DNA of 64,000 nt from Thermoplasmatota archaeon (GCA_965234725.1 CBDDUX010000038.1:19323-83322); one strand, 5' to 3'. Shown: positions 1 through 61,600, numbered from the stretch's first letter. The notes: a model not told the origin generated them from the sequence alone. Numbers and translations are program-made.

Positions 1-108
1 GAACGACGTTTGATACTTAAACATTTCACATTGATTGTACTGATAATGTCTTTTCACAACTTTTAAGAACAAGAACTCTATTGGCCGCTGAACAGGAGGA
101 CCTTTTAA

Positions 109-276
109 ATGTCTGTTGAAGAAAAATGCTCATCCTGCGGCATTCCGTTGAAGAGAGAAAAGTCGGTTGGCTTCAAATGCCCGTCATGCGGTGTAGGATT
201 CATCGGTCGATGCTCTAACTGTAGAGACCAGTCAGCCATATATGTGTGCAAGAACTGTGGTTTCGAGGGTCCTTGA
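109..276 (+). CDS. Small Zn-ribbon protein (DUF1610/COG2888-like), 55 aa; not in the ORF track
   Basis: Translated by hand as MSVEEKCSSCGIPLKREKSVGFKCPSCGVGFIGRCSNCRDQSAIYVCKNCGFEGP, with four CxxC motifs and a GFEGP end. AGGAGG lies upstream, and the position before EF-1beta is the usual archaeal arrangement. Confidence 0.9.
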   Translation: MSVEEKCSSCGIPLKREKSVGFKCPSCGVGFIGRCSNCRDQSAIYVCKNCGFEGP

Positions 277-9519: not shown

Positions 9520-9591
9520 GAGAAAACACCCTGATATTGGAACGATACATGTTCAAATTGCTATTAACACTTTTCACCTGGACTAAGATCA

Positions 9592-19560: not shown

Positions 19561-21093
19561 ATGGATATCCAAGAGGAAGAGGGAAGGATGCCATCCATTG
19601 TCATTGTTGGAATTGGCGGTGGTGGGTCCAGGATACTATCAGATGGAATGGAAAAGGTCATCAAATACATCAATGTGGATAGATACAACTGCCTGGCGAG
19701 AGCTGTAAGGGCAAACACCGAAAGGCCTCTCACTTTCATCGTGGATACCTCTTCGGATCCCACCCGAAAGGGATTCTTCGAGAACATTCCGGATGACCAG
19801 AAGATATCACTTTCAGAATCTGCTCGTGGTATGTCCAGAGGTGCGGGAGGGAGACCGGGTCGGGCAGCAAAGGCAGTTCTTAATGATGAAGTCGTCAAGA
19901 ACCTTGCATTCAATCTCTATAAACCGATCTCAGAAGCAGAACCTGCCATTGTTGTGATCATCCATACAGCAGACGGAGGAACCGGAGGAGGTCTGACTCC
20001 CGAGGTAATCCATCATCTTGGTTACTGCTTGCCCATGTCCACAATATTCTGGATCTTCACCGTACTTCCGAAAAGAACAGCACTCTCTCTCCTGGGTCCA
20101 AGGACCGTGGCTCCCACAATGGGGAAACTCTTGAAGGTAGCAAGAAGGGTCACACGGAGGGATTTTACAAATATTCCATTCCGCTGCAGAGAGGTTATAA
20201 ATTCAGCCATAAAACTGAAAAAGCTGGACCAGTCATATGAGTTCCAGCATTCTCGTATCGCAATTTTTCCACTCTCCAATCACCATTTCGCCCAGTGCAT
20301 GGAAGGTTTCGGCGGGAAACAGATAAGGGAAGAGGTTCTAAATCCATTCCCGATAGAACTCCTTTCCCAGGCTCTTTATCCTTATCTGAAATATAATGTC
20401 GCAACTTATGATGAACAGGTCTGGATGCAGGAGAACTGGCCTCTCGGTCCGATAGACATCCCGGACATCATGGCGGGTCTCACATCTGAAAGGCCCTTTG
20501 TGATCCCTCACCTTTTTGTGGATCCTGATATAGATGATCAGGATAGTATTGAGAGTGTGGTTAAGGACCTGGAGGAGGGGAGGATAAGATTGGAAGTTCA
20601 GAATGGGGAAAAAGGGAGTGAGGATCTGGGCCTCTTCACTTTCACAGGTTCCTCATCAGCTCTCTTCGAGTTCAGAGCAACATCACTCTACTGCATCCCC
20701 ATATACCCGGAGGGCAGTTCATATTTCGACAGTTTTGGAGATTTCGTGTCTGATATCTGGTTTCCATCACTCTCAGGGAAATTAAAATTCATCACAGGGA
20801 AACAGGGATTGAAACTAGGGGTCATCAGCCATGCAGCCAATCTCAAACCCCAACCGATCCCAAGACCTCCAGGAGATATCGACCTGGGTTTCAAAAATGG
20901 ACTTTTAGTCACACTTCTGTTTGGCGCGGTTCCCAAGGACCTACCTATCTGGCTTGAGGCGACAAGAGATATCATAGAAGGATACAAGACAGAGGATTTC
21001 TGGGAAGTATCCGGATATGATGCAAGGGATTGGTTGAACGAGATCTCAGCTTATGTTGGATGGCCTGATTGGCCTTACAAGAAATATAATTAG
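19561..21093 (+). CDS. Divergent FtsZ/tubulin-superfamily GTPase (start may be 19588)
   Basis: GIGGGGSRI (T1), GAGGRPG (T3), TADGGTGGG (T4 signature), VLP, LSN and GPIDIPDI (T7-like). Confidence 0.8.
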   Translation: MDIQEEEGRMPSIVIVGIGGGGSRILSDGMEKVIKYINVDRYNCLARAVRANTERPLTFIVDTSSDPTRKGFFENIPDDQKISLSESARGMSRGAGGRPGRAAKAVLNDEVVKNLAFNLYKPISEAEPAIVVIIHTADGGTGGGLTPEVIHHLGYCLPMSTIFWIFTVLPKRTALSLLGPRTVAPTMGKLLKVARRVTRRDFTNIPFRCREVINSAIKLKKLDQSYEFQHSRIAIFPLSNHHFAQCMEGFGGKQIREEVLNPFPIELLSQALYPYLKYNVATYDEQVWMQENWPLGPIDIPDIMAGLTSERPFVIPHLFVDPDIDDQDSIESVVKDLEEGRIRLEVQNGEKGSEDLGLFTFTGSSSALFEFRATSLYCIPIYPEGSSYFDSFGDFVSDIWFPSLSGKLKFITGKQGLKLGVISHAANLKPQPIPRPPGDIDLGFKNGLLVTLLFGAVPKDLPIWLEATRDIIEGYKTEDFWEVSGYDARDWLNEISAYVGWPDWPYKKYN

Positions 21094-42137: not shown

Positions 42138-45100
42138 ATGAAGTATCCCAGGGCTGGTAGATCCTCCATATGGAAGGTGATCGCAGCTTTTTTCCTATTG
42201 ATCGTCCTTTCGATCCAGTCTATCCCATCTGTTGGATCAGACATTACCCATATCAGCAGCCCATCAATGAATATCAATGGGAAGACCTCAGAGACCTCAA
42301 GAGGATTATCTGACGCGGTAGGTCTGGAATATATCGCAATTGGAGAATCAAGGTTCCGGGATGAAATGGAACCTCTTATAGAATGGAAGACCCAGAAGGG
42401 CGTGAAGGCAGGATTCTTCCCAATGGATGGGGAGGGAGGCATTCTCGAAACGTATTCAGGCCGTGATATTCAGGAGAAGATCCGTAATTTCATTATCGAT
42501 ATCTGGACCACAGGTGGAGAAAGCGAAGGTCCCCTCAAATGGGTCCTGCTTGTAGGTGATGGAGAGATCATTCCCCCACGAAGGACCTTCGTGAACGGAA
42601 GTTCCGAATTCGGATCCGAAAATGATGAAAATTATGTTCTTTCGGACCTCTATTACGCCGGTCTTACCGGTTCCTGGGATGAGGATTCAGATAATATCTT
42701 TGGGGAAGAGGATAGTTTAGTCCAGGAAATGGATGCAATAGCAGAGGTCAACGTTGGAAGGTTCCCAGCATCCACTGAAAAGGAGCTTAGGACAATGGTC
42801 AAAAGGCAGCTTTCCTACGAGAGGGACCCTGCACCGGGATCATGGACAGGATCAATGCTCCTTGCCGGTTCGTTGATGGATGCCCCAAATAACCAGGCAT
42901 TGTTCGACCCATACAAGGATAACGCTTTCGAACTGATCACCAAGATCGAGGAAATGCTCCCTGATGACATATCACCATACCCCCTGCTGGACTACCCGAG
43001 GCTTGAGTGGGGAGGATATAACAGGATGTTCGACACGCTGAACGAAACATCCTTTACCAAGCATTTTGAAGCAGGATTCTCAACTGTTCTTCTCGCCTGC
43101 CATGGAGATATCGATGGGAACTGCACTCACTATCAGGGGAACAGTGGCGGTAGCTACCCCTACTGGGCAGATTATGGAGTATATTTCAATTATACAACCG
43201 CTGAGACGATCAAGAACGGGGAAAGGACTCCTTTCGTATACATCTCCAATTGTGATTCATTGAACTTCACCGAACCTGATGATTCCAATATGGAACGGTT
43301 GATGACAAACCAAAACGGGGGGGCTATTGGTGTCATTGGGGCTTCAGTTACAACCTACAGGGGAGAGTATTTCGATGATACCTCATGGGGGAACTGGTGG
43401 CTTGCTGAAGAGTTCTTTGAGATATTAAATTACAACACCTCAAGACCAGGGGAAGCTTTGTACAAGCTCAAAGAGGATTATGTCAATCATGTGAACATCA
43501 AGGACCTGGTACCTGCCGAGATAAGGATGTTCAACATTGACAACCTGGCCTACAATCTTCTGGGGGATCCAGAAGTTCCCCTTTGGTTAAGATCCCCTAA
43601 GAAATTAAACATAGAATATCCTGAGGAATTTTACCAGGGTAATACTTCCATTGAGATCAGGGTGAGGGATGAGGAAACAGGGGCTTTTGTGGATCGAGCA
43701 ACCGTTTGCCTGATGGACCCAGATAATGGTTCCATATACAAGGTCTATAGGTCTAATAACTATGGCGAGGTCCAGATCCCACTTGTAATGGATGACCTTG
43801 GTGAACTCCTTCTCACGGTCACAAAGGAAGGATATCTCCCCTCTGAGAAGATCATAGATGTGGTTTCTCTAAGGAATGTAAGGATCACGGGAGAACCAAC
43901 CCTTGACCCATCCATTCCGATATATGGAAGACCATTCAGTGTCACTGTCACTGTTGGAAACACGGGCAACTCGATCCTTGAGGGGGTTACACTTTACGTT
44001 GAACTCCTGTCCCCCGATACGTCCCAGCGGATCCAAATACCAGAGGAAGGCATGGGAACCGCATTCCGATTATTATCAGGAGAGATCATCAACAAGACCA
44101 TCACATTTGACTCGCCATTCCATAGTCTCAATGGATCCAGTACAAACAAGCTGACGGCATGGGTGGAGGTCCCCCCTGGGCCTCTGGAGAATGATATTTC
44201 GGACAACAGTATCTCAATCCAATTCAGAGCCAATGAAGAGCCTTCCCTTATCGGTCTGCCATCAGGCTTCCGGATCCCGGAGGATTCCAGTCTATCTGGG
44301 ATCAATAAGACCTTGGACCTTTCAGGCCTGGTCATCGACGATGATTTTCCCGAGGAGTTGACATTCTGGACATCTGTGATCTCAGGTAATATGACAACGG
44401 AGATATCAAAGGAAGACCGTCTGGATGTCATACCTGAAAATGATTGGAACGGAGATGGGCAGATACGGGTCTTCGCTTCCGATGGTTCTGTGACAGTCAG
44501 CAGAATGTTGGGTGTGATCGTTGAACCAGTCCCTGACCCACCTGTTTTCCGATCATGGCCAGATACCGTGGAAGGACTTGAAGATGAACCAGTAACCTTC
44601 CTGATCGAACTGATCGATGTGGATACCAATGATGGAGATCTGAACTTAACCGCCCCAGGATGGGAGAACATCAGTTTCAAGAGGTTGGAGAACCGGACCT
44701 CATTTGTATTCGAGGTTAACCTGACACCAAGAGAGGAGGACCTGGGTCCGTCGGTCCTATTAATTATTGCAAGGGATGAGAGCAATCTCACTGCTGAGGT
44801 CAAGATCAGTCTGGACATCGATACAACGAACGATCCTCCTGAAGCAGAGTTCGATCCAAAGATCAGGGTTGAAAAAGGGAAGAGGATCAAGATCCCGATG
44901 ATGATCACGGATCGTGATAACGATCTGGAGATCCGTGTAGGAGTTTTGGGACTCATTGTTGCGGGTTACACGTATGAGAACGGATTACTTACGATAACAC
45001 CTGTTGACGGATTGGAGACAGGGACATATCAGGTGGACATCTGGATCGATGATACTGGTACAAGGGGTAACAGAACATACAGGGCCGAGATCGAAGTGGT

Positions 45101-45491
45101 GGATAAGGAGAATAGTCCCATCATCTTGACATTCATCTTGTTGGTCCTTGTAATAATAATTGTCCTGGTAGGTTATGGTGTATTCGTAAGGTCACAGGAG
45201 AACAAGCAGAAGAAAATGCTCGACCGTGTTGGGGATGAGGTATTACTTTCAAAAATAAAAAGAAAGAAGAAGAGGGGAAAGGAACCGCAAAGAAGTTCCC
45301 GAAAAGGTTCCATCGAGGCTCCCCCTGTCCCGAATGAACTGGAGGGTGTGCTCGCTAGGAAAGGTATCGAGGAGATCGAATCCGAGGATTGGAATGTTAC
45401 AGAATATGATGAGGTCACGGCATTCAAGGACCTGGAATCGGAACTTGAAGAAGTAATAGATGAACTCTATCCCGGTTCGGATGACAGATAA
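42138..45491 (+). CDS. Secreted membrane-anchored C25 (gingipain-family) cysteine peptidase with CARDB/cadherin-like domains
   Basis: WKTQKG, VLLVGD, SDLYY, VGRFP, catalytic CHG and SNC, YNLLGDP, C-terminal TM. Confidence 0.9.
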   Translation: MKYPRAGRSSIWKVIAAFFLLIVLSIQSIPSVGSDITHISSPSMNINGKTSETSRGLSDAVGLEYIAIGESRFRDEMEPLIEWKTQKGVKAGFFPMDGEGGILETYSGRDIQEKIRNFIIDIWTTGGESEGPLKWVLLVGDGEIIPPRRTFVNGSSEFGSENDENYVLSDLYYAGLTGSWDEDSDNIFGEEDSLVQEMDAIAEVNVGRFPASTEKELRTMVKRQLSYERDPAPGSWTGSMLLAGSLMDAPNNQALFDPYKDNAFELITKIEEMLPDDISPYPLLDYPRLEWGGYNRMFDTLNETSFTKHFEAGFSTVLLACHGDIDGNCTHYQGNSGGSYPYWADYGVYFNYTTAETIKNGERTPFVYISNCDSLNFTEPDDSNMERLMTNQNGGAIGVIGASVTTYRGEYFDDTSWGNWWLAEEFFEILNYNTSRPGEALYKLKEDYVNHVNIKDLVPAEIRMFNIDNLAYNLLGDPEVPLWLRSPKKLNIEYPEEFYQGNTSIEIRVRDEETGAFVDRATVCLMDPDNGSIYKVYRSNNYGEVQIPLVMDDLGELLLTVTKEGYLPSEKIIDVVSLRNVRITGEPTLDPSIPIYGRPFSVTVTVGNTGNSILEGVTLYVELLSPDTSQRIQIPEEGMGTAFRLLSGEIINKTITFDSPFHSLNGSSTNKLTAWVEVPPGPLENDISDNSISIQFRANEEPSLIGLPSGFRIPEDSSLSGINKTLDLSGLVIDDDFPEELTFWTSVISGNMTTEISKEDRLDVIPENDWNGDGQIRVFASDGSVTVSRMLGVIVEPVPDPPVFRSWPDTVEGLEDEPVTFLIELIDVDTNDGDLNLTAPGWENISFKRLENRTSFVFEVNLTPREEDLGPSVLLIIARDESNLTAEVKISLDIDTTNDPPEAEFDPKIRVEKGKRIKIPMMITDRDNDLEIRVGVLGLIVAGYTYENGLLTITPVDGLETGTYQVDIWIDDTGTRGNRTYRAEIEVVDKENSPIILTFILLVLVIIIVLVGYGVFVRSQENKQKKMLDRVGDEVLLSKIKRKKKRGKEPQRSSRKGSIEAPPVPNELEGVLARKGIEEIESEDWNVTEYDEVTAFKDLESELEEVIDELYPGSDDR

Positions 45492-45956: not shown

Positions 45957-47423
45957 TCAATCCCTGAACCCTACTCCTGAAGAAGATAGTACGGTTTCCT
46001 TCCATCTTTTATCCAGTGCATTTGATAGAATGATTATTGCAACCACTCCAAGAATGATCATGGAAGTAATTCCAAAAAGGGATACGATGGGAAGGTCCAC
46101 CATAAGGAATGATAACATGGTTGAGAACATCAAAGGAAGGACCGTGAACACCATATATCTCAAGAATACAGAAGAATCGAAGATCAGTGAATTGGTCCAT
46201 AATCCTGTCAGATATGCTGTGACGAAACCCATGTAGGGAACTGCCACGAGGATCAGTGGTACCCCGTACAAAAGTCCCTGAAGATCACCCGTAATGATCG
46301 ACATTGCAACAAGGAATACCAGGGAAATGGGTAGGGAGATGACAAGGTATACCCTTAGTTTTACTCTGATGAGTTGGGGTGTATCTATTGGGATCGTCTG
46401 ATCGAACTCAAGGAAATCGATATTGGTAAGATGGGTATAGATCGAGATGGTAAAAAATGAGACCATTACCGCAAAGAACGTGAGATTGAAAGATACTGGA
46501 ATACTCTCCAATCCGGACAGGATACCAATCATCCCTGACATCACAATAAGTGGAAAAAGTAATGAAAAACCGATCCTAATGTAGGCTTTCCCCCTTATCA
46601 ATCCCAGAAGCTCCCGTGAGAACAATGAGCGGGAAACTACATCACGAGGGTATAGAACACGGGACAAGGACATCACATTGTTATAGGACCCGGGTGAGTT
46701 GGTCCTGGAACTTCTTTCCCCACCATCGAATACCAAAGTTCCGATGGTAATATAGATCGATACAAGAAGGATCGTGATCAATATGAAGGTCCATGAGTCA
46801 TATTCGACAGCTAGCAATCCCGGAACGAATCCTCTTACATCATATGTTATGATCTGGATAATGATCAGAGGGAGGATGGATAGAGGTACGAAAAGAAGCA
46901 TTCTTCTTTTTGTGTTGTTTAATGCTGAGGACACAAGCATGCTCAGGGAAAGACCAAGGAGGAATGTGGACCATTGCGCAAATGTGATGAGCAGAACCCT
47001 GTCGATTGGGATGGGTCTGATGATCAACCCCAGCAATAATCCTGATGTCATCGGCATCAGAACGAGGAATATATAGAACACAAGGTCATGGAAGAAATAG
47101 GCAAGATACATCTTTCTCTCCCCCACAGGTTGGTACCTTGTCGATGCAGAGAGCATTGTCACCGGACCAAGCGACCTCTCTATGAACTCCTTGCCCAGGA
47201 AAGCAATTCCTCCCATGGATACACCGAACATGAAAAGAGAACCGAGGACCGCAGTGTGTATCTGTTCATAGGTGAAGGATCCCGCAAGATCGGGAAGGAA
47301 GATATATCCGCACATAGCACCGATCAGAATGACCTCGGGGAAGATTATTAGTGAGAGTGAGGATGAGAAGGATCTTCTCAACCTTATCTCCTCTATGAGG
47401 AAAAGTCTCACCAGCTTCCACAT
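45957..47423 (-). CDS. Polytopic membrane protein, ABC-2-type permease-like
   Basis: About 12-14 TMs in a duplicated architecture, EEIRL near the N-terminus. Start placed at ATG 47423. Confidence 0.65.
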   Translation of the reverse strand: MWKLVRLFLIEEIRLRRSFSSSLSLIIFPEVILIGAMCGYIFLPDLAGSFTYEQIHTAVLGSLFMFGVSMGGIAFLGKEFIERSLGPVTMLSASTRYQPVGERKMYLAYFFHDLVFYIFLVLMPMTSGLLLGLIIRPIPIDRVLLITFAQWSTFLLGLSLSMLVSSALNNTKRRMLLFVPLSILPLIIIQIITYDVRGFVPGLLAVEYDSWTFILITILLVSIYITIGTLVFDGGERSSRTNSPGSYNNVMSLSRVLYPRDVVSRSLFSRELLGLIRGKAYIRIGFSLLFPLIVMSGMIGILSGLESIPVSFNLTFFAVMVSFFTISIYTHLTNIDFLEFDQTIPIDTPQLIRVKLRVYLVISLPISLVFLVAMSIITGDLQGLLYGVPLILVAVPYMGFVTAYLTGLWTNSLIFDSSVFLRYMVFTVLPLMFSTMLSFLMVDLPIVSLFGITSMIILGVVAIIILSNALDKRWKETVLSSSGVGFRD

Positions 47424-47455
47424 GGGGGAAAAATAACAAAGGTCCACTTAACGGT

Positions 47456-48250: not shown

Positions 48251-48598
48251 TTATCGGGCCTTGTTGAAGTAGTTGGCAAGGTAGGTGAAAAGAGCACCAC
48301 CAATGATGATCGGCCACGCGACCTCGGGTTTTCCGTTCTGGGCCTCGTATACTCCCCAGAGAATGATTATCATACCGATGGGAGTAACGAAGTGATAAGC
48401 CCATCTCATTAAGTAGAATATCCTAGCAGCAGTGGATACTCTCCTCTTGGGTGTTGGAGGCGCCTTGGGTCCGCTTACCCCTGTATTCCGTGGTGCCGCT
48501 CTCCTTACACCTGCACTAACCCTTTGTTGCAAGAAATCCACTCCTTTTCTCCGGGTCAATGTCTTAAGGGTAGAATAAGGTTGTTGTCCAAGTATCAA
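48251..48598 (-). CDS. Small hypothetical membrane protein
   Basis: Basic N-terminus and two TMs; overlaps the upstream stop codon. Confidence 0.55.
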   Translation of the reverse strand: MILGQQPYSTLKTLTRRKGVDFLQQRVSAGVRRAAPRNTGVSGPKAPPTPKRRVSTAARIFYLMRWAYHFVTPIGMIIILWGVYEAQNGKPEVAWPIIIGGALFTYLANYFNKAR

Positions 48599-49350
48599 GT
48601 GGGTATGTCCTCTATCTTTGTGACCTCAGGGTGTGCCTTAGGGATCCATGGAATTCCTACCTTGCCGTTGCTGTAAAGCCACTTTGTGTCATCCTTCAAA
48701 GAAGGTTCCTTATCATTAACGGATGCAACAGGTCCGGTCCTAATCGGAAATCTCTTTCTTCTTTTCTTGTCGAACATCAACTCATTTAATCTCTTACCTG
48801 GCTTGATATCCTTGATGGCATGATACCGGTTCAATCCTCTGAATCCGTAACAAAGGTCCCAATCACCATGGTAGATGCAGCCTGCGCAGGTCCGGTAAAA
48901 ATAGTAGAGTCTCAAGGTGCCCATAAAACTGATCGATACCATGATCAAGAAAATGAAAAGAAGAATGAATTGCCATCCTGCAGGAATTGTGAGTGCCCAT
49001 ACGATCAACCCAGCCAGTGAAAAGCTTAAAGATACCTTTGCGGCCAGTCGGGTTATCCTGCCTTCTGATCTCATAAGATATTTCATCATATGAAAAAGGC
49101 CGAATAGGACCGATATTCCAATAAGGACCGATTGATGGAAGTATGGTTCAGGTATGTGTCTGTAGGATCTTGTGAGGAGTGTAAAAATGATAAGAATGAG
49201 AGCAAGGGGATATGAAATGGTGCATCCCATGCAGAATCTCCTTCCAAGAATAATATAGGTATCATTGTTGTAGAAAGAGCACAAAGGATGATGAGATCTG
49301 AGGAAGGGAGCCAGAGCTCTGAACACCGATAGGACCTCCCCGAAAACCAT
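48595..49350 (-). CDS. Membrane protein with His/Cys metal-binding motifs (DUF2085-like)
   Basis: SHHPLC...FCMGC, four TMs, CAGC...DLC. Confidence 0.6.
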   Translation of the reverse strand: MVFGEVLSVFRALAPFLRSHHPLCSFYNNDTYIILGRRFCMGCTISYPLALILIIFTLLTRSYRHIPEPYFHQSVLIGISVLFGLFHMMKYLMRSEGRITRLAAKVSLSFSLAGLIVWALTIPAGWQFILLFIFLIMVSISFMGTLRLYYFYRTCAGCIYHGDWDLCYGFRGLNRYHAIKDIKPGKRLNELMFDKKRRKRFPIRTGPVASVNDKEPSLKDDTKWLYSNGKVGIPWIPKAHPEVTKIEDIPT

Positions 49351-49837: not shown

Positions 49838-52800
49838 TCATTCCTCAATATCAATTTGGACCTGAGCGGTCACTATCTTTTGTGGAGATGGTTTCTTCTT
49901 TCCTTTAAGAATAAGGAAAATGACAACACTGGTGATAATAAGCAGTAAAATTGTCATTATGGCAATGAACCAGGATTCCGGCTCACCTTCGTTCACCACA
50001 AGGGCCTGATAGAATCCGGAGAAAGCCACCATGATGAATGAACCCGCACCTATCCTGCCTGCATATTTATGGATCTTCATGGTCGGCCTTTTATGTTTCA
50101 TTATCTTGGTGTATTTGAAATATAATCCCAATCCAAGAGCAGTGAAGGACCCAATTATAGCAATGATACCGAACCAGGAATGCAGCACTCTCAGATGATC
50201 CCCGGTTCCGGATTCAACCATGATATAACCCAGGATCAAACCGATCGTTCCCATTATCACTGAGGTCGACATCACATAGATATGGAATTTTAAGAAGAAT
50301 TTCCATTTCTTTCGGTATTGTGAGACCCAGGCAGCTATCATACCTCCTACACCCAGGGTCATGAATATTGCATGGAACGGCCACAATACAACAGGGTCCT
50401 CACTTGAGGTCTCTCCTGATGCGATATCGATAGTTCCATAACCGACTCTTGTATGCATATTACTGAAGGAATCCGAATCACCGACCCCCCAGATTATCTT
50501 GACAGTTCCGTTCCTGGGGATCGGATTATCCTTATCATCACCGGTATCCAGTTTTCGGACTATCTCTATGGTGGTAACACCATTTATCTCCCTTCCTCCG
50601 AATGAATCGATATCATCTGTTCCTCCCTGTTCAGTATCAGCGGGATGGGGGCCGGTTGGTCCTGTTGAATATGCATCAATGACCTTGACTGTTCCGTCTC
50701 CTTCCACCCATCCGAATATCATGTCGGAATCTGACATTGCCGTACTGTAATCGATTCCAATTGAGACCCATCCAGTGGTCTTACCCTGAATGGCCAACCT
50801 TATCGAATCACCTTCCACTTTCCAGTATATGGTGATGATCCCGTCTCCAAATGTACCGTTGAAATCATACTCATCTTCTGATATCATTCCATCCAGATCG
50901 GCTGTTACCGGTGGTTCTTTTCCGCCTGGACCAATGGTTAAAACGGCAAATCCTCTCTTGGAGTGTGTCTCCCCGAAATCGTCGTGCTCTCCATAGGCCC
51001 ACATGATGTTCAGGTTGCCTGCAGTGGGAATATCCTTGTCGTAATCGTCACCAGTGGAGATATTCCTTACGAACTCGATCGTCGTCACACCGTCAATTTC
51101 AGTTCCGTTATACTGAAGGATATCCATTGTTCCTCCAAGATGGGTGTCGGGAGGATGAGGGCCGAATTGACCCGTCGAATACGCATCTATGATATGGACA
51201 GCTCCATTTTCGATCCAACCAAGGACCACATCAGAGTCCATCATGACATCTTCTGGGTCGAACCCTATGGAGATCCATCCAGTGGTCCTGGCTGATATTG
51301 CCATGTGAAGGTCCTGGCCCTCGATCGTCCAGTGTACCTTGAAATTGTCGAAGTCAAAACTGGCAGAATCCTTGTACTCACCAGTTGAGATGATTCCATC
51401 CAATCCTCCCACAGGTTGGGGTTCATCCATGTATAGTAGTAGTGTTCCGGATCCTCTATCTGAATGACTGCTCTCCGGATCATCCGAAGAACCCAATCCC
51501 CAGATGATATTGAGGGATCCGGAAGAGGGGATCTCTTTGTCGTATACATCCTGGGTATCCAATTCTCTTATGAATTCTATTGTTGTGTTCCCTTCTGTCT
51601 GGGTTCCGTTGAATGTGATGATATCATCCGAACCACCAAGGTCCGTATCTAACGGGTGAGGTCCCAGGTTTCCCGTAGAATATGTATCCCAGAGACCTGG
51701 CCCGTCATCATCCACCCATCCGATGAGTAGATCGGCATCTTTCATCATGGTGGTTGGTTCGAATCCAATGGATACCCAGCCTTCGGTCTCACCAACCATT
51801 GCCATCCATATCCTGGTCCCGTTAATGGACCAGTGCAAAACAAAAGAACCTCCTCCGAAGGATGCGGAATCATCATATTCGTCCTCTGAAACGATTCCGT
51901 CCAGTGTGGTATTCCTCAGAGGTGGAGGGGGGGGTGGAGGAGTTGTATTGGTCCCGATCTTCCAGGTAGTTGTTCCTCTCCGTGTATGAAGTGAAGTTGG
52001 ATCGTCCGAATCAGAGACTGCCCAGATGATCGTCATAAGACCTGTTTTGTTGATGCTCTTATCATAAAGGTCTGTTGAGGTCATGTTCCTGAGGAACTCT
52101 ATTGTTGTCCATCCATCCGACTCCGTCACATTGAAATCCAGGATATCATTTGTCCCACCAAGGGTAGTATCTTCAGGATGCGGTCCTTCAGGTCCTGTTG
52201 AAAATTGATCGAAAAGATGGGGATCGCCGTCATGATATCCAAGCATCATATCGCCATCTGCCATCCTGTCGGAAGGATCGATGCCGAGAGATATCCACCC
52301 AGTTGCCTGGGCCCTGATCCCAATTGATATTGTGGTTCCATTTAAGTTCCAATGAAGTTCGAACCTATCTGAGTCGAATATCTTCGAGCTGTTATATTCC
52401 CCTTCAGAGATCATACCATCGAATTCTGAAAAATGTAACGGTGGTGGAGGTGGTGGAGGAGGAACGGTTTCATTGGAGAGGTTCCACATGATCGTCCCTC
52501 TCCTTGTATGGGTGGCCATCGGATCGTCTGATTCAGCAACTGCCCAGATAAGTGGGAAAGCATGATCGGTCCAAATCGTACGATCATTAGAATCGCTGGT
52601 GGAAAGGTTCCTTCTGAACTCGAATGTGGTCCAGCCTCCGGATTCCGTTCCGTTATAGGAGATAATATCGAAAGTTCCACCCAGGTCCTCATCGCGGGAA
52701 TGAGGACCTGTCGCACCCGTTGCGAAATGGTCCTCTGACTTTGCGAGGTTTCCTTCAACCCACCCGAAGATAAGATCCGCATCCAACATTCTATCGGTCG

Positions 52801-54100
52801 GGTCGATCCCGATCGACACATAACCGGAGACCTGTGCCCTGATCCCGATATCTATTGATGTTCCGTTCACTTTCCAGTATAGTTCGAACATGTCGCTGTC
52901 AGTTTTCGTTACGTTCCCATATTCATCCGGATCTATAATACCATCAAAATCAGATTTTGGAGGTGGAGGGGGAGGTGGCGGAGGAGTAGCGTCTACCCTC
53001 CAGGTGCCGTAACCGACCTTTGTATGTTTCGCGGAGATATCATCGGATGTTGAGATGCCCCAGATAATGTTCAGCGGAGTTCCTATCGAAATATCCTTGT
53101 CATTGGGATCTCCAGTTGAAAGCGCTCTCTTGATCTCGAGCGTGGTCCAGCCTCCGGATTCTGTAGCGTTGAAAGCCTTGATGTCGTCTGTTCCTCCGGT
53201 CAGATCGGTGTCAAGGATATGTGATGTTGTGGTCGTTGCATAATGGTCCTCTGCATAGGGACCGAAAGCAGAATATCCACCCATCAGGAAATCCGCACCG
53301 AGCATCATTGTAGTGGGGGATATCCCCAGAGATATCCAACCTGTGGTCAATGCCTTCACACCAATTGTGATATTCGGACCTGTAACATTCCAGTACAAAA
53401 GGAAATTCCCCGAATCATATGAAGTGCTGTTTGAATACTCTCCGTCCGTTATAATTCCGTCAAGTTCATCAGAAGCAGGAGGTGGAGGAGGAGGGGTTCC
53501 ATCCATCATGATAGTGTCGAAATCAGCATCATCGTGTTCTTTTGTCCAGTCATCATCTTCCCTTGTGGCCCATATTATCTTCATCGAGGTCCCGTTGACG
53601 AACTTCTTATCATATGCATCCCCGGTTGACATAGCTCTCTTGAATTCTATGGTGGTCGATCCAGCGGATTCAGTCCCGTCAAATTCATCGATATCGAAGG
53701 TCCCGCCGGTGAAGGTAGTATCTTCAGGATGGTTGCCCTTGTCATCGGTACAAAACGTGTCCTTGATGTGTGGTGTCCCGGTTCCATCAACCCATCCGAA
53801 TATCATGTCTGCATTTGTCATGAGGTTCACAGGATCTAATCCCAGGGAAAGCCAGCCAGTGACTTCCGACCTCATCCCTATGTAGATGTCGGCTCCTGTA
53901 GTGGTCCAGAATATCTCGAATTTCCCCTCATCAATGTTCTTGGAACTCTCATATTCGGATACTCCAATTACACCGTCTATTGTAGGATCCGCTCGGGTTG
54001 GAGCAGACTCTCCAGATGATCCGGTAGGACCAAATGGAATTATGAAGAAAGCTAATGCAATGTAGAGGACCGTGATCAGATGAATACCTTTTAAAGACAA
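49838..54100 (-). CDS. Secreted 7x DOMON (heme b-type) protein fused to a cytochrome b561-like membrane domain
   Basis: Seven repeats DG.I...EY / GW.S.G....M..AD / H..RG with Pro-rich linkers. The C-terminal TMs carry four His (FHAIFM, FHIYVM, LHSWFG, IHKYAG). Confidence 0.88.
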   Translation of the reverse strand: MSLKGIHLITVLYIALAFFIIPFGPTGSSGESAPTRADPTIDGVIGVSEYESSKNIDEGKFEIFWTTTGADIYIGMRSEVTGWLSLGLDPVNLMTNADMIFGWVDGTGTPHIKDTFCTDDKGNHPEDTTFTGGTFDIDEFDGTESAGSTTIEFKRAMSTGDAYDKKFVNGTSMKIIWATREDDDWTKEHDDADFDTIMMDGTPPPPPPASDELDGIITDGEYSNSTSYDSGNFLLYWNVTGPNITIGVKALTTGWISLGISPTTMMLGADFLMGGYSAFGPYAEDHYATTTTSHILDTDLTGGTDDIKAFNATESGGWTTLEIKRALSTGDPNDKDISIGTPLNIIWGISTSDDISAKHTKVGYGTWRVDATPPPPPPPPPKSDFDGIIDPDEYGNVTKTDSDMFELYWKVNGTSIDIGIRAQVSGYVSIGIDPTDRMLDADLIFGWVEGNLAKSEDHFATGATGPHSRDEDLGGTFDIISYNGTESGGWTTFEFRRNLSTSDSNDRTIWTDHAFPLIWAVAESDDPMATHTRRGTIMWNLSNETVPPPPPPPPLHFSEFDGMISEGEYNSSKIFDSDRFELHWNLNGTTISIGIRAQATGWISLGIDPSDRMADGDMMLGYHDGDPHLFDQFSTGPEGPHPEDTTLGGTNDILDFNVTESDGWTTIEFLRNMTSTDLYDKSINKTGLMTIIWAVSDSDDPTSLHTRRGTTTWKIGTNTTPPPPPPPLRNTTLDGIVSEDEYDDSASFGGGSFVLHWSINGTRIWMAMVGETEGWVSIGFEPTTMMKDADLLIGWVDDDGPGLWDTYSTGNLGPHPLDTDLGGSDDIITFNGTQTEGNTTIEFIRELDTQDVYDKEIPSSGSLNIIWGLGSSDDPESSHSDRGSGTLLLYMDEPQPVGGLDGIISTGEYKDSASFDFDNFKVHWTIEGQDLHMAISARTTGWISIGFDPEDVMMDSDVVLGWIENGAVHIIDAYSTGQFGPHPPDTHLGGTMDILQYNGTEIDGVTTIEFVRNISTGDDYDKDIPTAGNLNIMWAYGEHDDFGETHSKRGFAVLTIGPGGKEPPVTADLDGMISEDEYDFNGTFGDGIITIYWKVEGDSIRLAIQGKTTGWVSIGIDYSTAMSDSDMIFGWVEGDGTVKVIDAYSTGPTGPHPADTEQGGTDDIDSFGGREINGVTTIEIVRKLDTGDDKDNPIPRNGTVKIIWGVGDSDSFSNMHTRVGYGTIDIASGETSSEDPVVLWPFHAIFMTLGVGGMIAAWVSQYRKKWKFFLKFHIYVMSTSVIMGTIGLILGYIMVESGTGDHLRVLHSWFGIIAIIGSFTALGLGLYFKYTKIMKHKRPTMKIHKYAGRIGAGSFIMVAFSGFYQALVVNEGEPESWFIAIMTILLLIITSVVIFLILKGKKKPSPQKIVTAQVQIDIEE

Positions 54101-55041: not shown

Positions 55042-57297
55042 CTACCTGTAGACTGTGTAAGGGACAGTGAACGAACCCGCGGTTGTTTGGATGCTCAGCT
55101 CCCCGCTTACGGACTGCGCGGTCATATAACCCGAAGCACCTTCCATAATCCCATAGTCTGAGGATGCGGAAACACTGGATATATAACCCGATACGGATCC
55201 CGAACTGCTGATCAGTCCATTTTTTTCTTGGTAGATCAGATGAGGACAACCCCCGGAACACGTGCTTGTCCAGGAACCTGTGACCTTCAATGTTCCGGTA
55301 ACCTTTCCGTTGTTGTTCACAGTCGCGGTCAACGTGACCGTCCCGGAAACCGTGAAGAGATTATTGTAGGCGACGGTCCCGCACTCGGGACAGTTCTGCG
55401 TCAATGTAAATACCGTATTTCCGGTAAAGGGACCTTGGTAGACCAACTCCTGATCGATCGGAGGTTTCTCGATCTTTCCGACAAAGGACTCGTATACATC
55501 TTTTCCTCCCTCGAAAATGCTCTTGATGGTCCCTTCGGCGTTGGGAATTATCAAGCTCTCCACTTTGGACCGAAAGCAGTTCTCGACCCTGTTGATACCA
55601 TTCTTGATCATATCGACAGTACCGGGGACATTCAGATTGTGCAAGGCGGCACCCAGGCCGATCTCCCCCATGCCGCCCGTTAATGTCACGTACAGAAGGG
55701 CAGCTGTTGGTAACGCCAGAGCAGCGGCCGGCGCCCCGAAAAGCGCGGCGATCCCAATGGCCACGGCAGCAGTACCGCCAATAACCTTGTAGGCCGTATT
55801 GAAGGCCTCTGCCGGTCCTCTCGCGGAATCGCCGAAATAACCCCTGGACGCCATATTCACATTAGATTCTTGACCGTTCGACAGTGCATCGTAATATGCT
55901 TTAAAGCAATCGCCGGACCGCGTTACGGATCGAACGGGACCTTCATCGATAACCGGTGATTCCCAGTCAGTATCCAATTCCGATTGGGCCAACAACATGC
56001 CCATTATCATCCTGTCAACGAAAGCGAGGGAGGACAGGTCAATATCGATATTATCATCACCGATCGTCCCTATTTTGTAGTTATCGGTATATCCCTGGAT
56101 AACGGGGCGAATACCCTCCACCAGGGATTCCAGGTTTGATAATTGAGCATTTACGGCAGAGGTCATCTCCGTGGTCTCCAGGGATGTGCCCTGGACCCCG
56201 TTCCTGTTCTCCCGGGCAAATTCCAAGGCCGCTTCGAGGAAAATGAGGGTCGCCTGGCCGTCGGGCAGCCCGGAATTGGGCAATTCCAGCGCATGGAATC
56301 CGGACAATGTGTTGGATTTCGTGATCTTGCCTCCGGATTCCTTGATCACCTGGATATCGTAACTCCCGGAGGAGAAGCCCCCATCGCTTGTGATCAAGGG
56401 CGGGACCGCGACCGATACAGTCTTTAGGGTAACATCCACCGAAGGCACCTCAATGGAAATACCATGGTCGTCGGTAAAGCATACCAGGATATCGCCGTAT
56501 GTCCCGAAACCCGTCCCCGAAACCGTAAGTATGGCACCGGGTACGCCGGAGTCCATGTCCATCGACGCTATCTCGAACTTGTCCTCGTCTTCAGTTCCAA
56601 ATCCCATGAACAAAAGACCCGCACCCACGATTATTGCGCCAAGGATCAAAAGGACAATTAAGATGGCAATTGCTCCCAGACAAAGGAACGGGGTCGCGGA
56701 CCCCTTCTTCCTGGGTTTTCTTCTTTCTTCCTCCCCGGTAGATGGAAGATGAGGCGCCTTCCAAGTGAACTTATGACCGCAATCGTTGCATTCCCCCCGG
56801 CCGTCGTCCAGGAAATCGATATCCTTGCTATTGCACTTCTTGCATTTGCCAGTTCTTAGAGTCTTCACATGCTCTTCGACCTGCTCAGGCGCCTTGGGCC
56901 TGGAACTCTTTCTTCTTGAAAGGATAATTATGACTATGATCAATACCACGATCAAAACAAGGATCCCGAGCACTATGGCGCAGATGCCGCAGATTGCAAG
57001 ACCGGAAAAAGCAAAGAGACTAAGATTGTTCCCTTCCTCGGGCTTGTTGGTAGCATCCCTGGGACCTGTTCCTGCCTCGTACTCCTCCTGGTTGTCGTAC
57101 CCCTCCCTGTCCGGGTCCTCATAAATTCCTTCTTCAACACCACCGAGATATTGGATCTCCCACAAATCCAGGAGCCCATCCGAATCGGAATCGCCCACAT
57201 TGTCCTGCGCCGATGTTGAAGTAAAGGCGCAGATCAGTATCAAAGTGGATAAGAACAATGCAAAGCTAATAAGGACAGTTCTTCTTTTATTCTTCAC
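55042..57297 (-). CDS. Cargo membrane protein: Ca-binding DxDxDG, TM, Zn ribbon, TM, IPT/TIG-like domain, long hydrophobic segment
   Basis: DSDSDGLLDLWE, CKKC...CNDC, SGVPGAILTVSGTGFG, and a Gly/Ala-rich hydrophobic stretch. Confidence 0.75.
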   Translation of the reverse strand: MKNKRRTVLISFALFLSTLILICAFTSTSAQDNVGDSDSDGLLDLWEIQYLGGVEEGIYEDPDREGYDNQEEYEAGTGPRDATNKPEEGNNLSLFAFSGLAICGICAIVLGILVLIVVLIIVIIILSRRKSSRPKAPEQVEEHVKTLRTGKCKKCNSKDIDFLDDGRGECNDCGHKFTWKAPHLPSTGEEERRKPRKKGSATPFLCLGAIAILIVLLILGAIIVGAGLLFMGFGTEDEDKFEIASMDMDSGVPGAILTVSGTGFGTYGDILVCFTDDHGISIEVPSVDVTLKTVSVAVPPLITSDGGFSSGSYDIQVIKESGGKITKSNTLSGFHALELPNSGLPDGQATLIFLEAALEFARENRNGVQGTSLETTEMTSAVNAQLSNLESLVEGIRPVIQGYTDNYKIGTIGDDNIDIDLSSLAFVDRMIMGMLLAQSELDTDWESPVIDEGPVRSVTRSGDCFKAYYDALSNGQESNVNMASRGYFGDSARGPAEAFNTAYKVIGGTAAVAIGIAALFGAPAAALALPTAALLYVTLTGGMGEIGLGAALHNLNVPGTVDMIKNGINRVENCFRSKVESLIIPNAEGTIKSIFEGGKDVYESFVGKIEKPPIDQELVYQGPFTGNTVFTLTQNCPECGTVAYNNLFTVSGTVTLTATVNNNGKVTGTLKVTGSWTSTCSGGCPHLIYQEKNGLISSSGSVSGYISSVSASSDYGIMEGASGYMTAQSVSGELSIQTTAGSFTVPYTVYR

Positions 57298-57752: not shown

Positions 57753-58341
57753 TGGTGGACCGGTCGGGACCTTGGCCGCGGGGCAGAGTATTTTGAGAGT
57801 ATCTGCCAGGTCAAGGTGTGACTAAAGGAGTTGTTCTTCAGAATATCATTACCTTTAGTCTACAGACCGGGACACTTTTCCTTTAGTTTTGAAAAGGTTG
57901 AAATTGATATTATACACACAGGACCGGTCGGGACCTTTGAATCGTAGTGATATTATCGTTTATTCAGATTCAAAGGCATCGCCAAAACCTTCGGTTTTGT
58001 CTGTCCCTCGGTTTCCCTACACTCAACCTCGGGAGCCAGATGAAAAACGAAAAAATGAGTTGTGATCTTTCAAATCTTTTCAATCATTGAAATTATTTTA
58101 ATAAACACAGGTGGACCGGTCGGGAGGGGTCTTATCGTAGTATTATTGTCGATTTTCAAGATAAGACCCCTCAGATGAAAAACGGTCATCATTAATATAT
58201 CATCATTTTTCATCGCGTATAATCAATATGTAGCAATGGTTTTCGTAGAAATTTGGAATTGACGATAGAAAACCATTGCGGAATAGGTCCACTCTCCGTT
58301 AATAATTAGAAAATAATTAGAGGAGAGTGGACCGGTCGGGA
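57753..58341. repeat. Structured repeat cluster 2: hairpin modules delimited by tRNA 3'-end fragments at 57753-57769, 57921-57933, 58110-58125 and 58328-58341
   Basis: The first copy is the reverse complement of TCCCGACCGGTCCACCA, including CCA. Module 58126-58327 is homologous to 54306-54506; 57770-57920 is homologous to 54577-54670 and 54184-54292. Confidence 0.9.
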
Positions 58342-58612
58342 TCAATACCATTTAAGGTTTTGACCACTTTTTTTTATTTCCTTTAAAAACTCGTATTTAC
58401 AAATAGTTTTTACCTTTAAATATTGATATATTTTAGATATAATTTAAATTAATATTTCATTCTACATGTCAATTCTTGGGAGTAAAGTAGATATCCCCTT
58501 GTTGATGACAATAATATATCTTGACCGGTTTCAAATATCAATGTGATGTAAGTGATATGTGTACAATAGCTTTTTATAATCGGTTAGAGATATAAATTTC
58601 AATTAGAAGGAG

Positions 58613-61600
58613 GTGTTCATCCTGAGAGGAAAAGAAGTGTATATAGTATTTGTTACAGTCCTGTTTCTGACCTCTGGCTTGTCTTTCTTGATGCAAGGAG
58701 AAGTTGATTCATTTGAAGATACCCTCTACAAAAATGTGAAAGGTCTTCATCTTAATCTGGATCTGATATCTGATTATTCTAAGGAATATGATTTGAAATC
58801 TGAAAACAATATACGGACAATATCATTCAATAAGAATAATCATGAAAAAGGTATTTTCTCAATTGAGGTTGATGATTTAAAGTTAAATGTTGAATCATTT
58901 ATCCTTTGTGAAGAAAATGGAATAGAAGAATATAAAGAGAAATCTAATGACAAAAATGCCTTAAATGGTTTTCCAAATGAAAATAAAATTAAGTACACCA
59001 GCGAGAATAATTATGAAATCAATTATGATGTTACTGTAAATGGGATAAAGGAAACTCTTGTATTGTATTCATATCCCGATAATATTACATCTGATTTAAT
59101 TCTCCGGTCGAAGATCTGGACGAACTCTTTTGTCAAAACTAACAATAATAATGGTAGTTATAATATTCCTGAAAAGGATATCAAATTCTTTTTCAATGAC
59201 TTCATGGAAAAAGAAATATTTTCAATATCAAAACCTTTCCTTTTATCATCACCTGAATCTATAATGACTGAAAATGGGAAGCTGGAAATGCAGGATACCA
59301 TTAAAAGGATGCCACTAGAACATAGATATCATTATGATAAACATTACATTTACCATGATATTATAATACCAAAGGATGTTGTCTATTCCGATATCAAGTA
59401 TCCATTATATGTCGATCCCTCTATCACTACATTCAGTGGAATAACGACGTATGAAGGTTATGTTAATGGTTCGATTTCACAAACAATTGACGGTGATACA
59501 ACATGGTATTATGATTGTTCAAGGACAATTCTACTTGATAGTAGTATAACAATTGGTGTTGATGAAGTTCTAACTTTCAAAAATATAAGAGTGAAAGCTA
59601 ATGATAATGATATGGCTATAAATGTTGATTATGGGGGAACCTTAAATATTATTGATAATTCAGTTTTAACAGCTAACTATGATTATTACGAGTATACAGT
59701 CATATATAAATATGGAAGTTATGGAAATATCTTGGATAGTGAAGTTAAAAAAGCAAAATTTGGAAATGGGATTGAAATTCGATCATCTAATGTTTGGATT
59801 AATAATTCTCTTATTCATATAAATGGAGATTATGGTGTTTATATTTATCAATCCAATCCTATAGTATCTCATTCAAATATTAATACAAACGATTATGGAG
59901 TATATGTCACAGCATTCTCAAGTCCAACATTAGTTGGAAATGACATTAATATCAACACATATGGTGTTTATTATGAGAGTTCCAATGTGGTTGAAGAATT
60001 TTCCTCTTCAATAAATATTGATCAGTTGGTTGGAACAAAGTACGAAAGTAATTCAGTTCAATGGGATGTCGGGTTGGGAAATTATGCTTTGACTTGCCCT
60101 TCTGTCACGGTAGATTCGACCTATCAAGCAGCATATAATGCAGGACACCTTTACGACGGAATAACTGAGGAAGTATGGTGGAATCAATGGGATAGTTGGT
60201 ATGATTATAATCCACATTGGGCAGTGTTTGATTTTCAAGAACAAAAGACAGTCGATGAATTTATAATTCATCATAGATCAGATTTCCTGACTCAGGATTA
60301 TCTAATTCAAACATGGACAGGCAGTTCTTGGTCAACCCAAGTGAATGTGAATGACAATACTCAACAGATCAGAACTCATACTTTGGGATCAAGTGTGACA
60401 ACTCAAAAGATTAGACTCTACATCACGGATGCGAATCCTTCTGATGGTATGGCAAGAGTACGTGAGTTTGAAATATATGGTGAAACAGACGATTATGAAT
60501 GTCATTACATGATTACAGATCCAATTGAAACACATGGAGATACCATTTTCGGTAACTTAATCTTGGATAAAACCGAACCAGGTGATTCTCAAATACTCGT
60601 TTCTATTCTTGATGGTGTGACTGAAAATGTCATTACTGGATTTGATAGACTCGAATCTGATGAAATTGACCTGAAATGGATCGACACTGAAGATCATCCA
60701 TCCATCAAAATAAAAGCTGAGTTTGAAAAGGTAGATACTGACACTCCAACCCTGAACGGGTATGACCTCTATTTCAGTCCGTTGAAAGATTATCTATCCG
60801 ATTTTGAATCAGATGACGAGTTTTCTTCAATGAATTATTTAGAAACAAGAAACGGTCAGGCAACTCTAGAGTTGGAAGAAGAAATCCTTGATGAGGAATG
60901 GAGCACTGGTTGGGATTCAAGATGGACGGTTGAGACCTTTGAAGACGGTGGAGATGTGTATGTCTCAACTGACTATTGGGAGGATTCTGGTAATGACCTC
61001 TATATGCATGGAAAATCACTTTCATCTACTTCAGGTCATAATGGTCATGTCCAGGTTTCTAAAAACTTCGGTGAGATTGATCCTGGTGACACTATTCAAA
61101 CTCATTTTGAGGGGAGTATCCACCGGTATGATTATAATGAAGCCGATTTCGAGATTTATCTCTATAACTCTGGAATGACCTCATTTAAGAAGATCAGATG
61201 GACAACAAATAATAATACGTATGATCCGGGAATTAGTGGTGATACTTATTACATCATCGCTCAGGATACTCATCCGTTTGCTCCTTACTTTTATGATGTT
61301 GTCATCCATTCTACCATTGAAAATCTCTTTGAGAAATACTTTGGAGAGGAACAGGTAGACTTCGAAACGTATAACGTTTTGTATGTGAAATCATTCGCAA
61401 TAGAACAATACAATCATCATGAAAATCCAAAGGTGTACATTGATTATTTCATTGTATCAGACATCGCAAAATCAGGTTCTGCAATTTCGACTGTATTTGA
61501 ACTTGAACCTTTGACCAAATGGGCTTTTGTTGCTCTTAACAAAGATGCTTATTATAACACAGATGTGAAGGTAAGTATTCTCAATGGTTATGGTGAATCA

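Follow-up and report, generated by a model that had tools for sequence, protein, structure and literature searches.

A seven-DOMON cytochrome b561 protein of a Thermoplasmatota archaeon, a candidate tethered heme-b reductase

The DNA analyzed here is a stretch of 64,000 nucleotides (the window) from an uncultured marine-sediment Thermoplasmatota archaeon (GCA_965234725.1 CBDDUX010000038.1:19323-83322), and the subject of the analysis is a minus-strand gene at 49838..54100, or C38:69160-73422 in genome coordinates, whose predicted product joins seven DOMON domains (D1 to D7) to a membrane-embedded cytochrome b561 core. The window is archaeal in content, with genes for an archaeosine TGT with a PUA domain, an aIF-2B-like protein, an AMP phosphorylase-like protein and an HVO_0163-type helix-turn-helix protein, and the genome that it belongs to measures 3.54 Mb, at 97.65% completeness and 2.54% contamination. 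The parts of the gene are the following.

49838..54100 (-), seven-DOMON cytochrome b561 gene: a single open reading frame (ORF) of 1420 amino acids with a TTG start, stop included (ORF list, translation, Pfam)
54011..54100 (-), signal-peptide-like N-terminal segment, approximately residues 1-30: one Lys, a hydrophobic stretch and SSGES (judged by reading the translation)
53495..53995 (-), DOMON 1, residues 36-202: Met94, middle His124, C-terminal His189
53477..53494 (-), polyproline linker 1, 6 Pro, residues 203-208: kept in 7 orthologues
52985..53476 (-), DOMON 2, residues 209-372: Met266, His294, His359
52958..52984 (-), polyproline linker 2, 9 Pro, residues 373-381
52463..52957 (-), DOMON 3, residues 382-546: Met438, His467, His531
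52439..52462 (-), polyproline linker 3, 8 Pro, residues 547-554
51941..52438 (-), DOMON 4, residues 555-720: Met613, His641, His705
51920..51940 (-), polyproline linker 4, 7 Pro, residues 721-727
51413..51919 (-), DOMON 5, residues 728-896: Met786, His815, His879
50903..51412 (-), DOMON 6, residues 897-1066: Met953, His982, His1046; flanking linkers short and without polyproline
50405..50902 (-), DOMON 7, residues 1067-1232, adjacent to the membrane: Met1122, His1152, His1216; structure model and fold matches described below
49901..50395 (-), cytochrome b561 core with five transmembrane helices, residues 1236-1400 (Pfam, alignments to 5zle and 4o6y, model)
49838..49900 (-), basic cytoplasmic tail ending in -EE, and stop codon (translation); the -EE end is common to the orthologues

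Pfam recognizes both halves of the protein: DOMON (PF03351) matches in 7 stretches with E 1.1e-161 (530 bits against a cut-off of 32.7; 70-99 bits for single repeats in the genome search), and cytochrome b561 (PF03188) matches at 24.2 bits against a cut-off of 23, or 30.1 bits in the whole-genome search. The gene provides the sole DOMON match and the sole b561 match in the genome. The same protein gave a sub-threshold match to EB_dh (29.7 against 33.3, Pfam), and the NCBIfam search of it yielded nothing beyond a PEP-CTERM match below threshold.

Pairwise identity among the seven repeats is 37-49%, and their alignment contains 30 invariant columns, three of which are occupied by the residues listed above, a Met, a middle His and a C-terminal His in every repeat. 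An earlier note, made by reading the sequence, had reported Met and distal-His motifs in all seven repeats, and all 14 of these motifs were found, each exactly once. It had further described a second invariant His within a GPHPxD motif; the His itself stands in 7/7 repeats, but the exact motif occurs in only 4/7 and the looser G-x-H-x-x-D in 6/7, with SHILD in D2. Its polyproline linkers are present as runs of 6-9 consecutive Pro at four junctions, from D1/D2 to D4/D5, and absent from the last two, the D5/D6 and D6/D7 junctions being only a few residues long.

To place the repeats among known folds, D7 together with the b561 core was modeled with AlphaFold2; the single-sequence model was poor (predicted local distance difference test score, pLDDT, 55.1) and an alignment-based model was used instead (pLDDT 89.8, predicted template modeling score 0.80). 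Behind the best fold match, which is weighed below with the alternative readings, the D7 model matches the cytochrome b domain of pyranose dehydrogenase (PDH; 6jt6, Z 14.0 in VIA-align, with agreement from Foldseek), the cytochrome of cellobiose dehydrogenase (CDH; 1d7b, Z 13.6 in VIA-align) and the heme-b gamma subunits of ethylbenzene dehydrogenase (Z 13.1) and nitrite oxidoreductase (NXR, Z 12.3). The sugar-binding modules of the CBM9 family follow at Z 8.4-8.9, indicating a related fold that is more distant. The assignment of these DOMONs to the heme-cytochrome rather than the CBM9 type is supported by this difference (Z 13-14 for heme-b cytochrome domains against 8.9) and by the retention of the Met and the C-terminal His.

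In profile searches against the PDB, the seven-repeat profile found only dopamine beta-hydroxylase (DBH, E 0.0096) and 6jt6 (E 1.7, not significant), and a broader DOMON-only profile built from 32 sequences had no match there at E<=10. The HMMER alignments pair the Met column with a Met in 6jt6, within that weak match, and with a Leu in heme-free DBH. The structural match to 1d7b, from model positions 6..163 onto chain positions 7..176, puts D7 His150 (model numbering) on chain position 163 if the alignment is gapless near its end. We take the CDH heme ligands to be Met65 and His163; the title of PDB entry 1pl3, which reads 'M65H' mutant, supports the former. The residue-level match to the CDH ligands draws on weak alignments and range offsets. 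Taken over sequence and model, the identification of the Met and C-terminal His as axial heme ligand positions is well supported, though not proven. The middle His accompanies the C-terminal His in nearly all the domains that have it.

The membrane part is a true b561 core, as had been proposed, with all four heme-ligand His aligned. The proposal had counted four His in the membrane domain; there are in fact six (1243, 1273, 1302, 1307, 1336 and 1344), four of which align with the b561 heme ligands. Aligned alone against human Dcytb (5zle), the membrane part gives E 0.045 with His on His at the four conserved places. A stronger result was obtained with an alignment of the D7-b561 unit and 50 single-DOMON relatives (51 sequences), whose profile reached E 1.4e-11 against an Arabidopsis cytochrome b561 (4o6y) and E 2.8e-9 against Dcytb, the four ligand His being aligned once more. 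These four, His1243, His1273, His1307 and His1344, do not vary among 7 orthologues and reach at least 90% conservation in the 51-sequence alignment; a fifth, His1302 in an outer loop, is likewise invariant in the orthologues and as well conserved as the ligand His in that alignment. The model of the membrane part superimposes on 4o6y with Z 15.6 and on 5zle with Z 14.8 (VIA-align); identity to the solved eukaryotic b561 proteins is remote, at 14-20%.

The model has five helices where the classical b561 proteins (CYBASC, Dcytb) have six; the classical first helix is absent, which is the arrangement of the CYBDOM proteins. The CYBDOM plan of outward DOMON(s) directly before the b561 core is also found here, about 25 residues separating His1216 of D7 from the first membrane His. 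Lys and Arg abound in the loops that follow helices 1 and 3 and in the tail, the remaining loops being acidic, and the basic inner loops are conserved; from this pattern we infer a topology with the N-terminus outside and the C-terminus inside. In that orientation His1243 and His1307 would hold an outer heme and His1273 and His1344 an inner one. Together with the DOMONs, sequence and model point to nine likely heme-b sites, seven of them extracellular and two within the membrane.

Several features of the polypeptide concern its surface location. A hydrophobic leader opens the orthologous proteins as it does this one. The ectodomain carries 25 N-glycosylation sequons against 8.0 +/- 2.5 in shuffled sequences (0/2000 shuffles reach 25) and is strongly acidic, both of which fit an archaeal surface glycoprotein with an outward-facing ectodomain. 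The protein contains a single Cys and 0 CxxCH motifs, and no ORF of the genome has more than two CxxCH; it thus lacks the several CxxCH motifs by which multiheme c-type cytochromes of the MtrC/OmcS type are sought, and the prediction that multiheme cytochrome c screens would miss it holds. At the other end of the chain, the -EE terminus recurs in the genome: 85 of the 1982 naive ORFs with 200 or more amino acids end this way, where about 10 would be expected from the Glu frequency and the second commonest C-terminal dipeptide, RK, ends 28. Of these 85 ORFs, 44 encode giant surface proteins (approximately 300-2550 residues, mostly above 650) with a C-terminal membrane helix, a basic stretch and a short tail, typically W/F/Y-E-E; the ending looks like a lineage-specific cytoplasmic tag on surface proteins.

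An exhaustive HMMER search with the D7-b561 unit collected 2339 proteins at E<=0.001, 172 of them at E<=1e-30. There are 24 near-length homologues, and the closest 14 are multi-DOMON proteins with the source names Thermoplasmata or Thermoplasmatota archaeon. Architectures were counted over 170 collected proteins, in which partial records make some counts lower bounds: a b561 core is accompanied by one DOMON in 68 proteins, by two in 7, three in 3, five in 1, six in 2 and seven in 7 (this protein included). Among these proteins, the survey of repeat number that the earlier note had called for finds the seven-repeat form in close relatives only, and the single-DOMON form, a protein of approximately 320-350 residues that is widespread and also present in Thermoplasmatota, as the commonest.

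The putative ligands are conserved across this set, and their pattern is no accident. The Met/His/His triad is kept in 222/370 related DOMON domains, and in 65/68 of the single-DOMON b561 proteins, while the Met alone is kept in 334/370. All seven repeats retain the triad in 5/6 seven-repeat orthologues; the sole exception is repeat 6 of one orthologue (P0010), in which the Met is replaced by Lys, a residue that also serves as a heme ligand in the gamma subunit of ethylbenzene dehydrogenase, and this repeat may still bind heme. Repeats D1-D7 pair one to one with those of orthologue P0008, and likewise with those of P0010 except that D2 ties its repeats 2 and 3; this repeat-by-repeat matching suggests that the seven-repeat array is old and that each position in it has been kept. 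The polyproline spacers, too, are conserved among the 7 orthologues. In the one same-genus genome in which the locus is syntenic (G035, C17:281000-300000, approximately 6271-10528), the orthologue is split into four same-strand frames of 387, 244, 566 and 307 residues, reflecting either real frameshifts or assembly indel errors.

Within the class, a match to the family occurs in 24/37 genomes, and in 11/12 of the high-quality ones. Long multi-DOMON frames are found there in the organism's own family (f1) and in one genome, G001, of a second (f3); the other matching families usually have a single match (in one genome two). Across the phylum sample, 35/301 genomes have a match, concentrated in this class and in a further family (f30), where long multi-DOMON frames occur as well. 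A second multi-DOMON gene is present in some relatives, in genome G027 as a frame of 1278 residues around C3:39858-42476, and two proteins (P0014 and P0015) combine five triad-bearing DOMONs with a single-helix anchor and no b561 core.

A nine-heme protein presupposes a supply of heme, and markers of heme synthesis were searched for, HemA, HemB and HemC in the organism's own genome and HemB in its relatives. The HemA N-domain, HemB (ALAD) and HemC have no match in the 97.65% complete genome (controls respond in 10-11 of 14 genomes), and HemB was found in 0/37 genomes of the class. The HemB search works in the phylum, given that 87/301 genomes of the phylum sample responded to it. Among carriers of the DOMON-b561 family HemB occurs in 1/35 genomes (G111), against 86/266 non-carriers, which is to be taken as a pattern only since related genomes are not independent. 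The genome also shows no match to the heme-copper oxidase COX1 or cytochrome bd, nor to Ni_hydr_CYTB, Cytochrome_B or monofunctional catalase.

With no match to heme-synthesis markers, any heme in this organism must be scavenged from the environment. One other heme enzyme is nonetheless encoded in this synthesis-negative genome: a full-length catalase-peroxidase, KatG, in an open frame of 780 residues with two peroxidase domains (contig C47:44705-46570). Its gene has a guanine-plus-cytosine (GC) content of 0.549, against 0.454 for the genome, within a 57-kb contig of normal composition, and it was probably acquired; KatG is present in 7/37 genomes of the class. The organism is best read as a heme auxotroph that still uses heme. 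Apparent heme auxotrophy has been reported, in a preprint, for Marine Group II archaea and other aquatic lineages.

The nearest known systems are the CYBDOM proteins (Arabidopsis HYP1 and CRR, animal SDR2/FRRS1), with which this protein shares a signal peptide (putative here), an outward DOMON with Met and C-terminal His, a five-helix b561 core and two His pairs. The published description of HYP1 gives it a modeled five-helix b561 core, a DOMON heme held by Met90 and His174, three hemes b in all and the ability to reduce ferric and cupric substrates; its His pairs are assigned there to the apical side (H211-H278) and the cytoplasmic side (H245-H314). The spacing of the ligand His, 30/34/37 residues here, compares with 34/33/36 in that description of HYP1. 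The differences from CYBDOM proteins lie in the number of DOMONs, seven here against 'one or more' in the plant account and three in an amoebozoan protein (P0101), in the polyproline spacers, in an extra invariant His per DOMON that HYP1 does not use, and in the archaeal host, which lacks a match to heme-synthesis markers.

The cytochrome domains of CDH and PDH (1d7b, 4qi3 and 6jt6) have the same beta-sandwich (Z 13.3-14.0, root-mean-square deviation 2.6-2.9 over 148-151 residues), with a Met in the N-terminal half and a His close to the C-terminus, but these fungal domains are single, secreted and joined by a flexible linker to a flavin or pyrroloquinoline quinone dehydrogenase, whereas here seven stand on a membrane cytochrome. 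PgcA of Geobacter sulfurreducens, as described in the literature, consists of three monoheme c domains joined by (PT)x repeats, and electron transfer by 'tethered diffusion', as opposed to a packed chain, was shown for it experimentally. Like PgcA, the present protein would carry single-heme domains (the heme being predicted here) on proline-rich linkers outside the cell; unlike it, it has seven DOMONs and its own transmembrane cytochrome anchor, PgcA being c-type (CXXCH), soluble, secreted and bacterial, with three domains of an unrelated fold. The uncharacterized single-DOMON b561 proteins of archaea and bacteria share the triad subtype and the b561 core and differ in having one DOMON rather than seven. 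Tandem arrays of many DOMONs, from 6 to 12, exist in eukaryotes (Arcella, Styela, Haliotis, Protocruzia and the Planoprotostelium protein P0016, whose six DOMONs are joined to a heme-containing ferric-reductase membrane domain), but the arrays of 8-12 repeats are all without a b561 core, and one or both His are missing from most of their repeats. Literature searches found nothing, in the library searched, on prokaryotic multi-DOMON b561 proteins, on archaeal DOMON-b561 proteins, on DOMON in Thermoplasmatota or, of relevance, on Thermoprofundales and heme; a search combining DOMON, extracellular electron transfer and heme b yielded only an MtrA-DOMON fusion, and one for bacterial DOMON-b561 proteins led to papers that, judging by their titles, all concern plants or plant-associated subjects.

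On this evidence we propose that the protein is an N-glycosylated, membrane-anchored b-type cytochrome of CYBDOM-like design in which seven outward DOMONs replace one, acting as a transmembrane heme-b reductase whose tethered DOMONs pass electrons by collision and not along a rigid wire; we give this proposal an even chance of being right. A cytoplasmic reductant would dock on the basic inner loops and reduce the inner heme (His1273/His1344), the electron would cross to the outer heme (His1243/His1307) and from there reach the heme b of D7, held by Met1122 and His1216. It would then pass to the six further DOMON hemes through collisions of tethered domains, within and between neighboring molecules, and leave for oxidants outside the cell, for example ferric or cupric species, humics or reactive oxygen species. 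All nine hemes would be taken from the environment, as the organism appears unable to make tetrapyrroles. In this scheme heme binding, the direction of electron flow, the donor, the acceptor and the collision mechanism are all inferred.

The preference for collisions comes from the geometry of the outer part. From the C-terminal His of D5 or D6 to the first conserved motif of the next repeat there are approximately 22-24 residues, of which about 18 still belong to domain strands in the model; with so few linker residues left between the domains, D5-D7 would abut. D1-D4, on the other hand, appear to be spaced by stiff polyproline segments, and the conservation of these spacers argues against a fixed, closely packed D1-D5 chain. 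Since head-to-tail domains of approximately 165 residues keep equivalent hemes not much less than one domain width apart, a rigid tunneling wire is unlikely for the outer part. A static nine-heme wire was considered as the default arrangement and rejected on the same geometric grounds, the polyproline spacers being conserved in 4/6 linkers.

Several observations weigh against the proposed reductase. The best fold match of the D7 model is heme-free DBH (4zel, Z 15.0 in VIA-align), and the invariant middle His has no explained role in a heme model. A nine-heme protein in this organism would depend wholly on scavenged heme or else bind something else. P0014 and P0015, lacking b561, could not be fed directly from the cytoplasm. 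A conserved operon partner or donor was not found, synteny extending within the genus only; a futalosine-pathway marker was not found in the genome either, and the ascorbate that serves as donor to eukaryotic b561 proteins is, to our knowledge, not known in archaea.

The principal alternative, which we consider unlikely but serious, is that the string of DOMONs serves heme capture, relay or storage: it would collect heme from decaying biomass and hold it or hand it inward, with the b561 core mainly an anchor or a reductase aiding the release of heme or iron. Met/His ligation also occurs in the heme-transport proteins IsdE and HtsA, and the multi-NEAT Isd proteins of Gram-positive bacteria and the surface heme layer of Porphyromonas offer comparable designs. 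Heme scavenging had been raised as an alternative function in the earlier note and has gained weight from the absence of synthesis markers, both in this genome and, for HemB, throughout the class and in nearly all family carriers (the latter with the caveat about related genomes already given). It is further favored by KatG, which needs heme inside the cell, by the paralogue-like, single-helix-anchored five-DOMON proteins P0014 and P0015, and by a gingipain-type C25 peptidase encoded 4 kb away. We still rank it below electron transfer: every orthologue keeps the four heme His and the b561 fold, which fits poorly with a mere anchor, none of the conserved neighbors is a transporter, six-coordinate Met/His heme in DOMON/CDH-type domains is known from electron transfer and not from heme hand-over, and the common form of the family (68/170) is a single DOMON on b561.

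It is rather less probable that the same cytochrome performs another task, as an extracellular antioxidant or oxygen shield, quenching peroxide or oxygen, or as an antenna for electron uptake from minerals or partner cells in a strict anaerobe, rather than as an outlet for electrons of respiration or fermentation. Electron transfer through b561 is reversible in principle. The genome has no match to heme-copper or bd oxidases yet contains an apparently acquired KatG, which points to pressure from oxidative stress, but KatG is patchy in the class, in 7/37 genomes against 24/37 for the DOMON-b561 protein, and the sequence data, which cannot tell the direction of flow, hold no direct sign of an acceptor or donor. 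Plant CYBDOM and AIR12 proteins are described as working in apoplastic redox control, in keeping with an antioxidant role. That the protein is not a heme protein at all, its DOMONs binding carbohydrate as in CBM9 or metal at the His, the whole being a long adhesin or sensor and the b561-like helices a relic, seems to us improbable. The lack of HemB from all 37 class genomes would accord with it, the fold is common to CBM9 (Z 8.9) and to heme-free DBH (Z 15.0), and each repeat has two invariant His that might make up a metal site. Against this, the Met at the axial-ligand position is kept in 334/370 related domains and the triad in 222/370, the Met position is a Leu in heme-free DBH, four membrane His are invariant at exact b561 ligand positions, structures of heme-type DOMONs score 4-5 Z units above CBM9, and KatG shows that heme enzymes are kept in a heme-synthesis-negative genome.

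If the proposed reductase is taken to the level of the class, fermentative marine-sediment archaea without tetrapyrrole synthesis would be building their sole membrane cytochrome from scavenged heme, as a string of nine hemes b that is filled from the cell's exterior and, by tethered diffusion, delivers cytoplasmic electrons to minerals, humics or partner cells; this wider picture is tentative, and we lean against it more than toward it. DOMON-b561 fusions are already known in eukaryotes. What is new is the conserved seven-fold array with polyproline spacers, limited to a Thermoplasmatota lineage, and its occurrence in genomes without tetrapyrrole-synthesis markers and without any other cytochrome family searched for. 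Surveys of extracellular electron transfer seek multiheme c-type cytochromes, and here a lineage without them conserves a surface protein with nine likely heme-b sites. Should this protein prove redox-active, its tethered domains could form a b-type conduit for electron exchange between the abundant sediment Thermoplasmatota and minerals, humics or partners, a route of extracellular electron transfer that is independent of c-type cytochromes and invisible to CxxCH-based surveys. Dependence on environmental heme would tie heme cross-feeding in sediments to redox ecology and metabolism. The protein also lends itself naturally to testing how tethered cofactor domains transfer electrons over long range, which has so far been shown for PgcA, and is an experimentally tractable prokaryotic relative of the plant and animal CYBDOM ferric reductases.

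The DNA runs that contain the gene are labeled as marine sediment metagenomes. In four metatranscriptome libraries from a single study, contigs match parts of the gene at 95-99% identity. This is a weak hint of transcription, which contigs cannot prove: the gene itself had served to find these runs, and carried-over DNA may contribute. Neighboring genes left uncovered are no evidence either way.

Around the gene, the C25 peptidase (Peptidase_C25, gingipain-type, 1117 residues, 42138-45491 (+), E 1.3e-47) is followed by Ig-like domains and is kept in the same-genus genome at 89% identity. Three flanking membrane proteins without a Pfam match, a Cys-rich protein of 251 residues (48595-49350 (-)), a polytopic protein of 496 residues (45957-47447 (-)) and a protein of 751 residues with a zinc-ribbon-like CxxC...CxxC between membrane helices (55042-57297 (-)), are conserved only within the genus. 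At the other six loci the neighbors differ, with Na+-oxaloacetate decarboxylase and an FN3/SBBP giant protein in one genus, and tRNA synthetase, MatE and MMPL elsewhere. Farther away, at 19561-21093 (+), a tubulin/FtsZ-like protein scores 28.2 bits, below the Pfam cut-off of 33. Toward the end of the window, from 58000 to 64000, the GC content drops from about 0.47 to 0.30-0.36, and an ORF of more than 1795 residues with an F5/8 type C (discoidin) domain runs from 58613 past the window end; it may encode an acquired giant surface protein.

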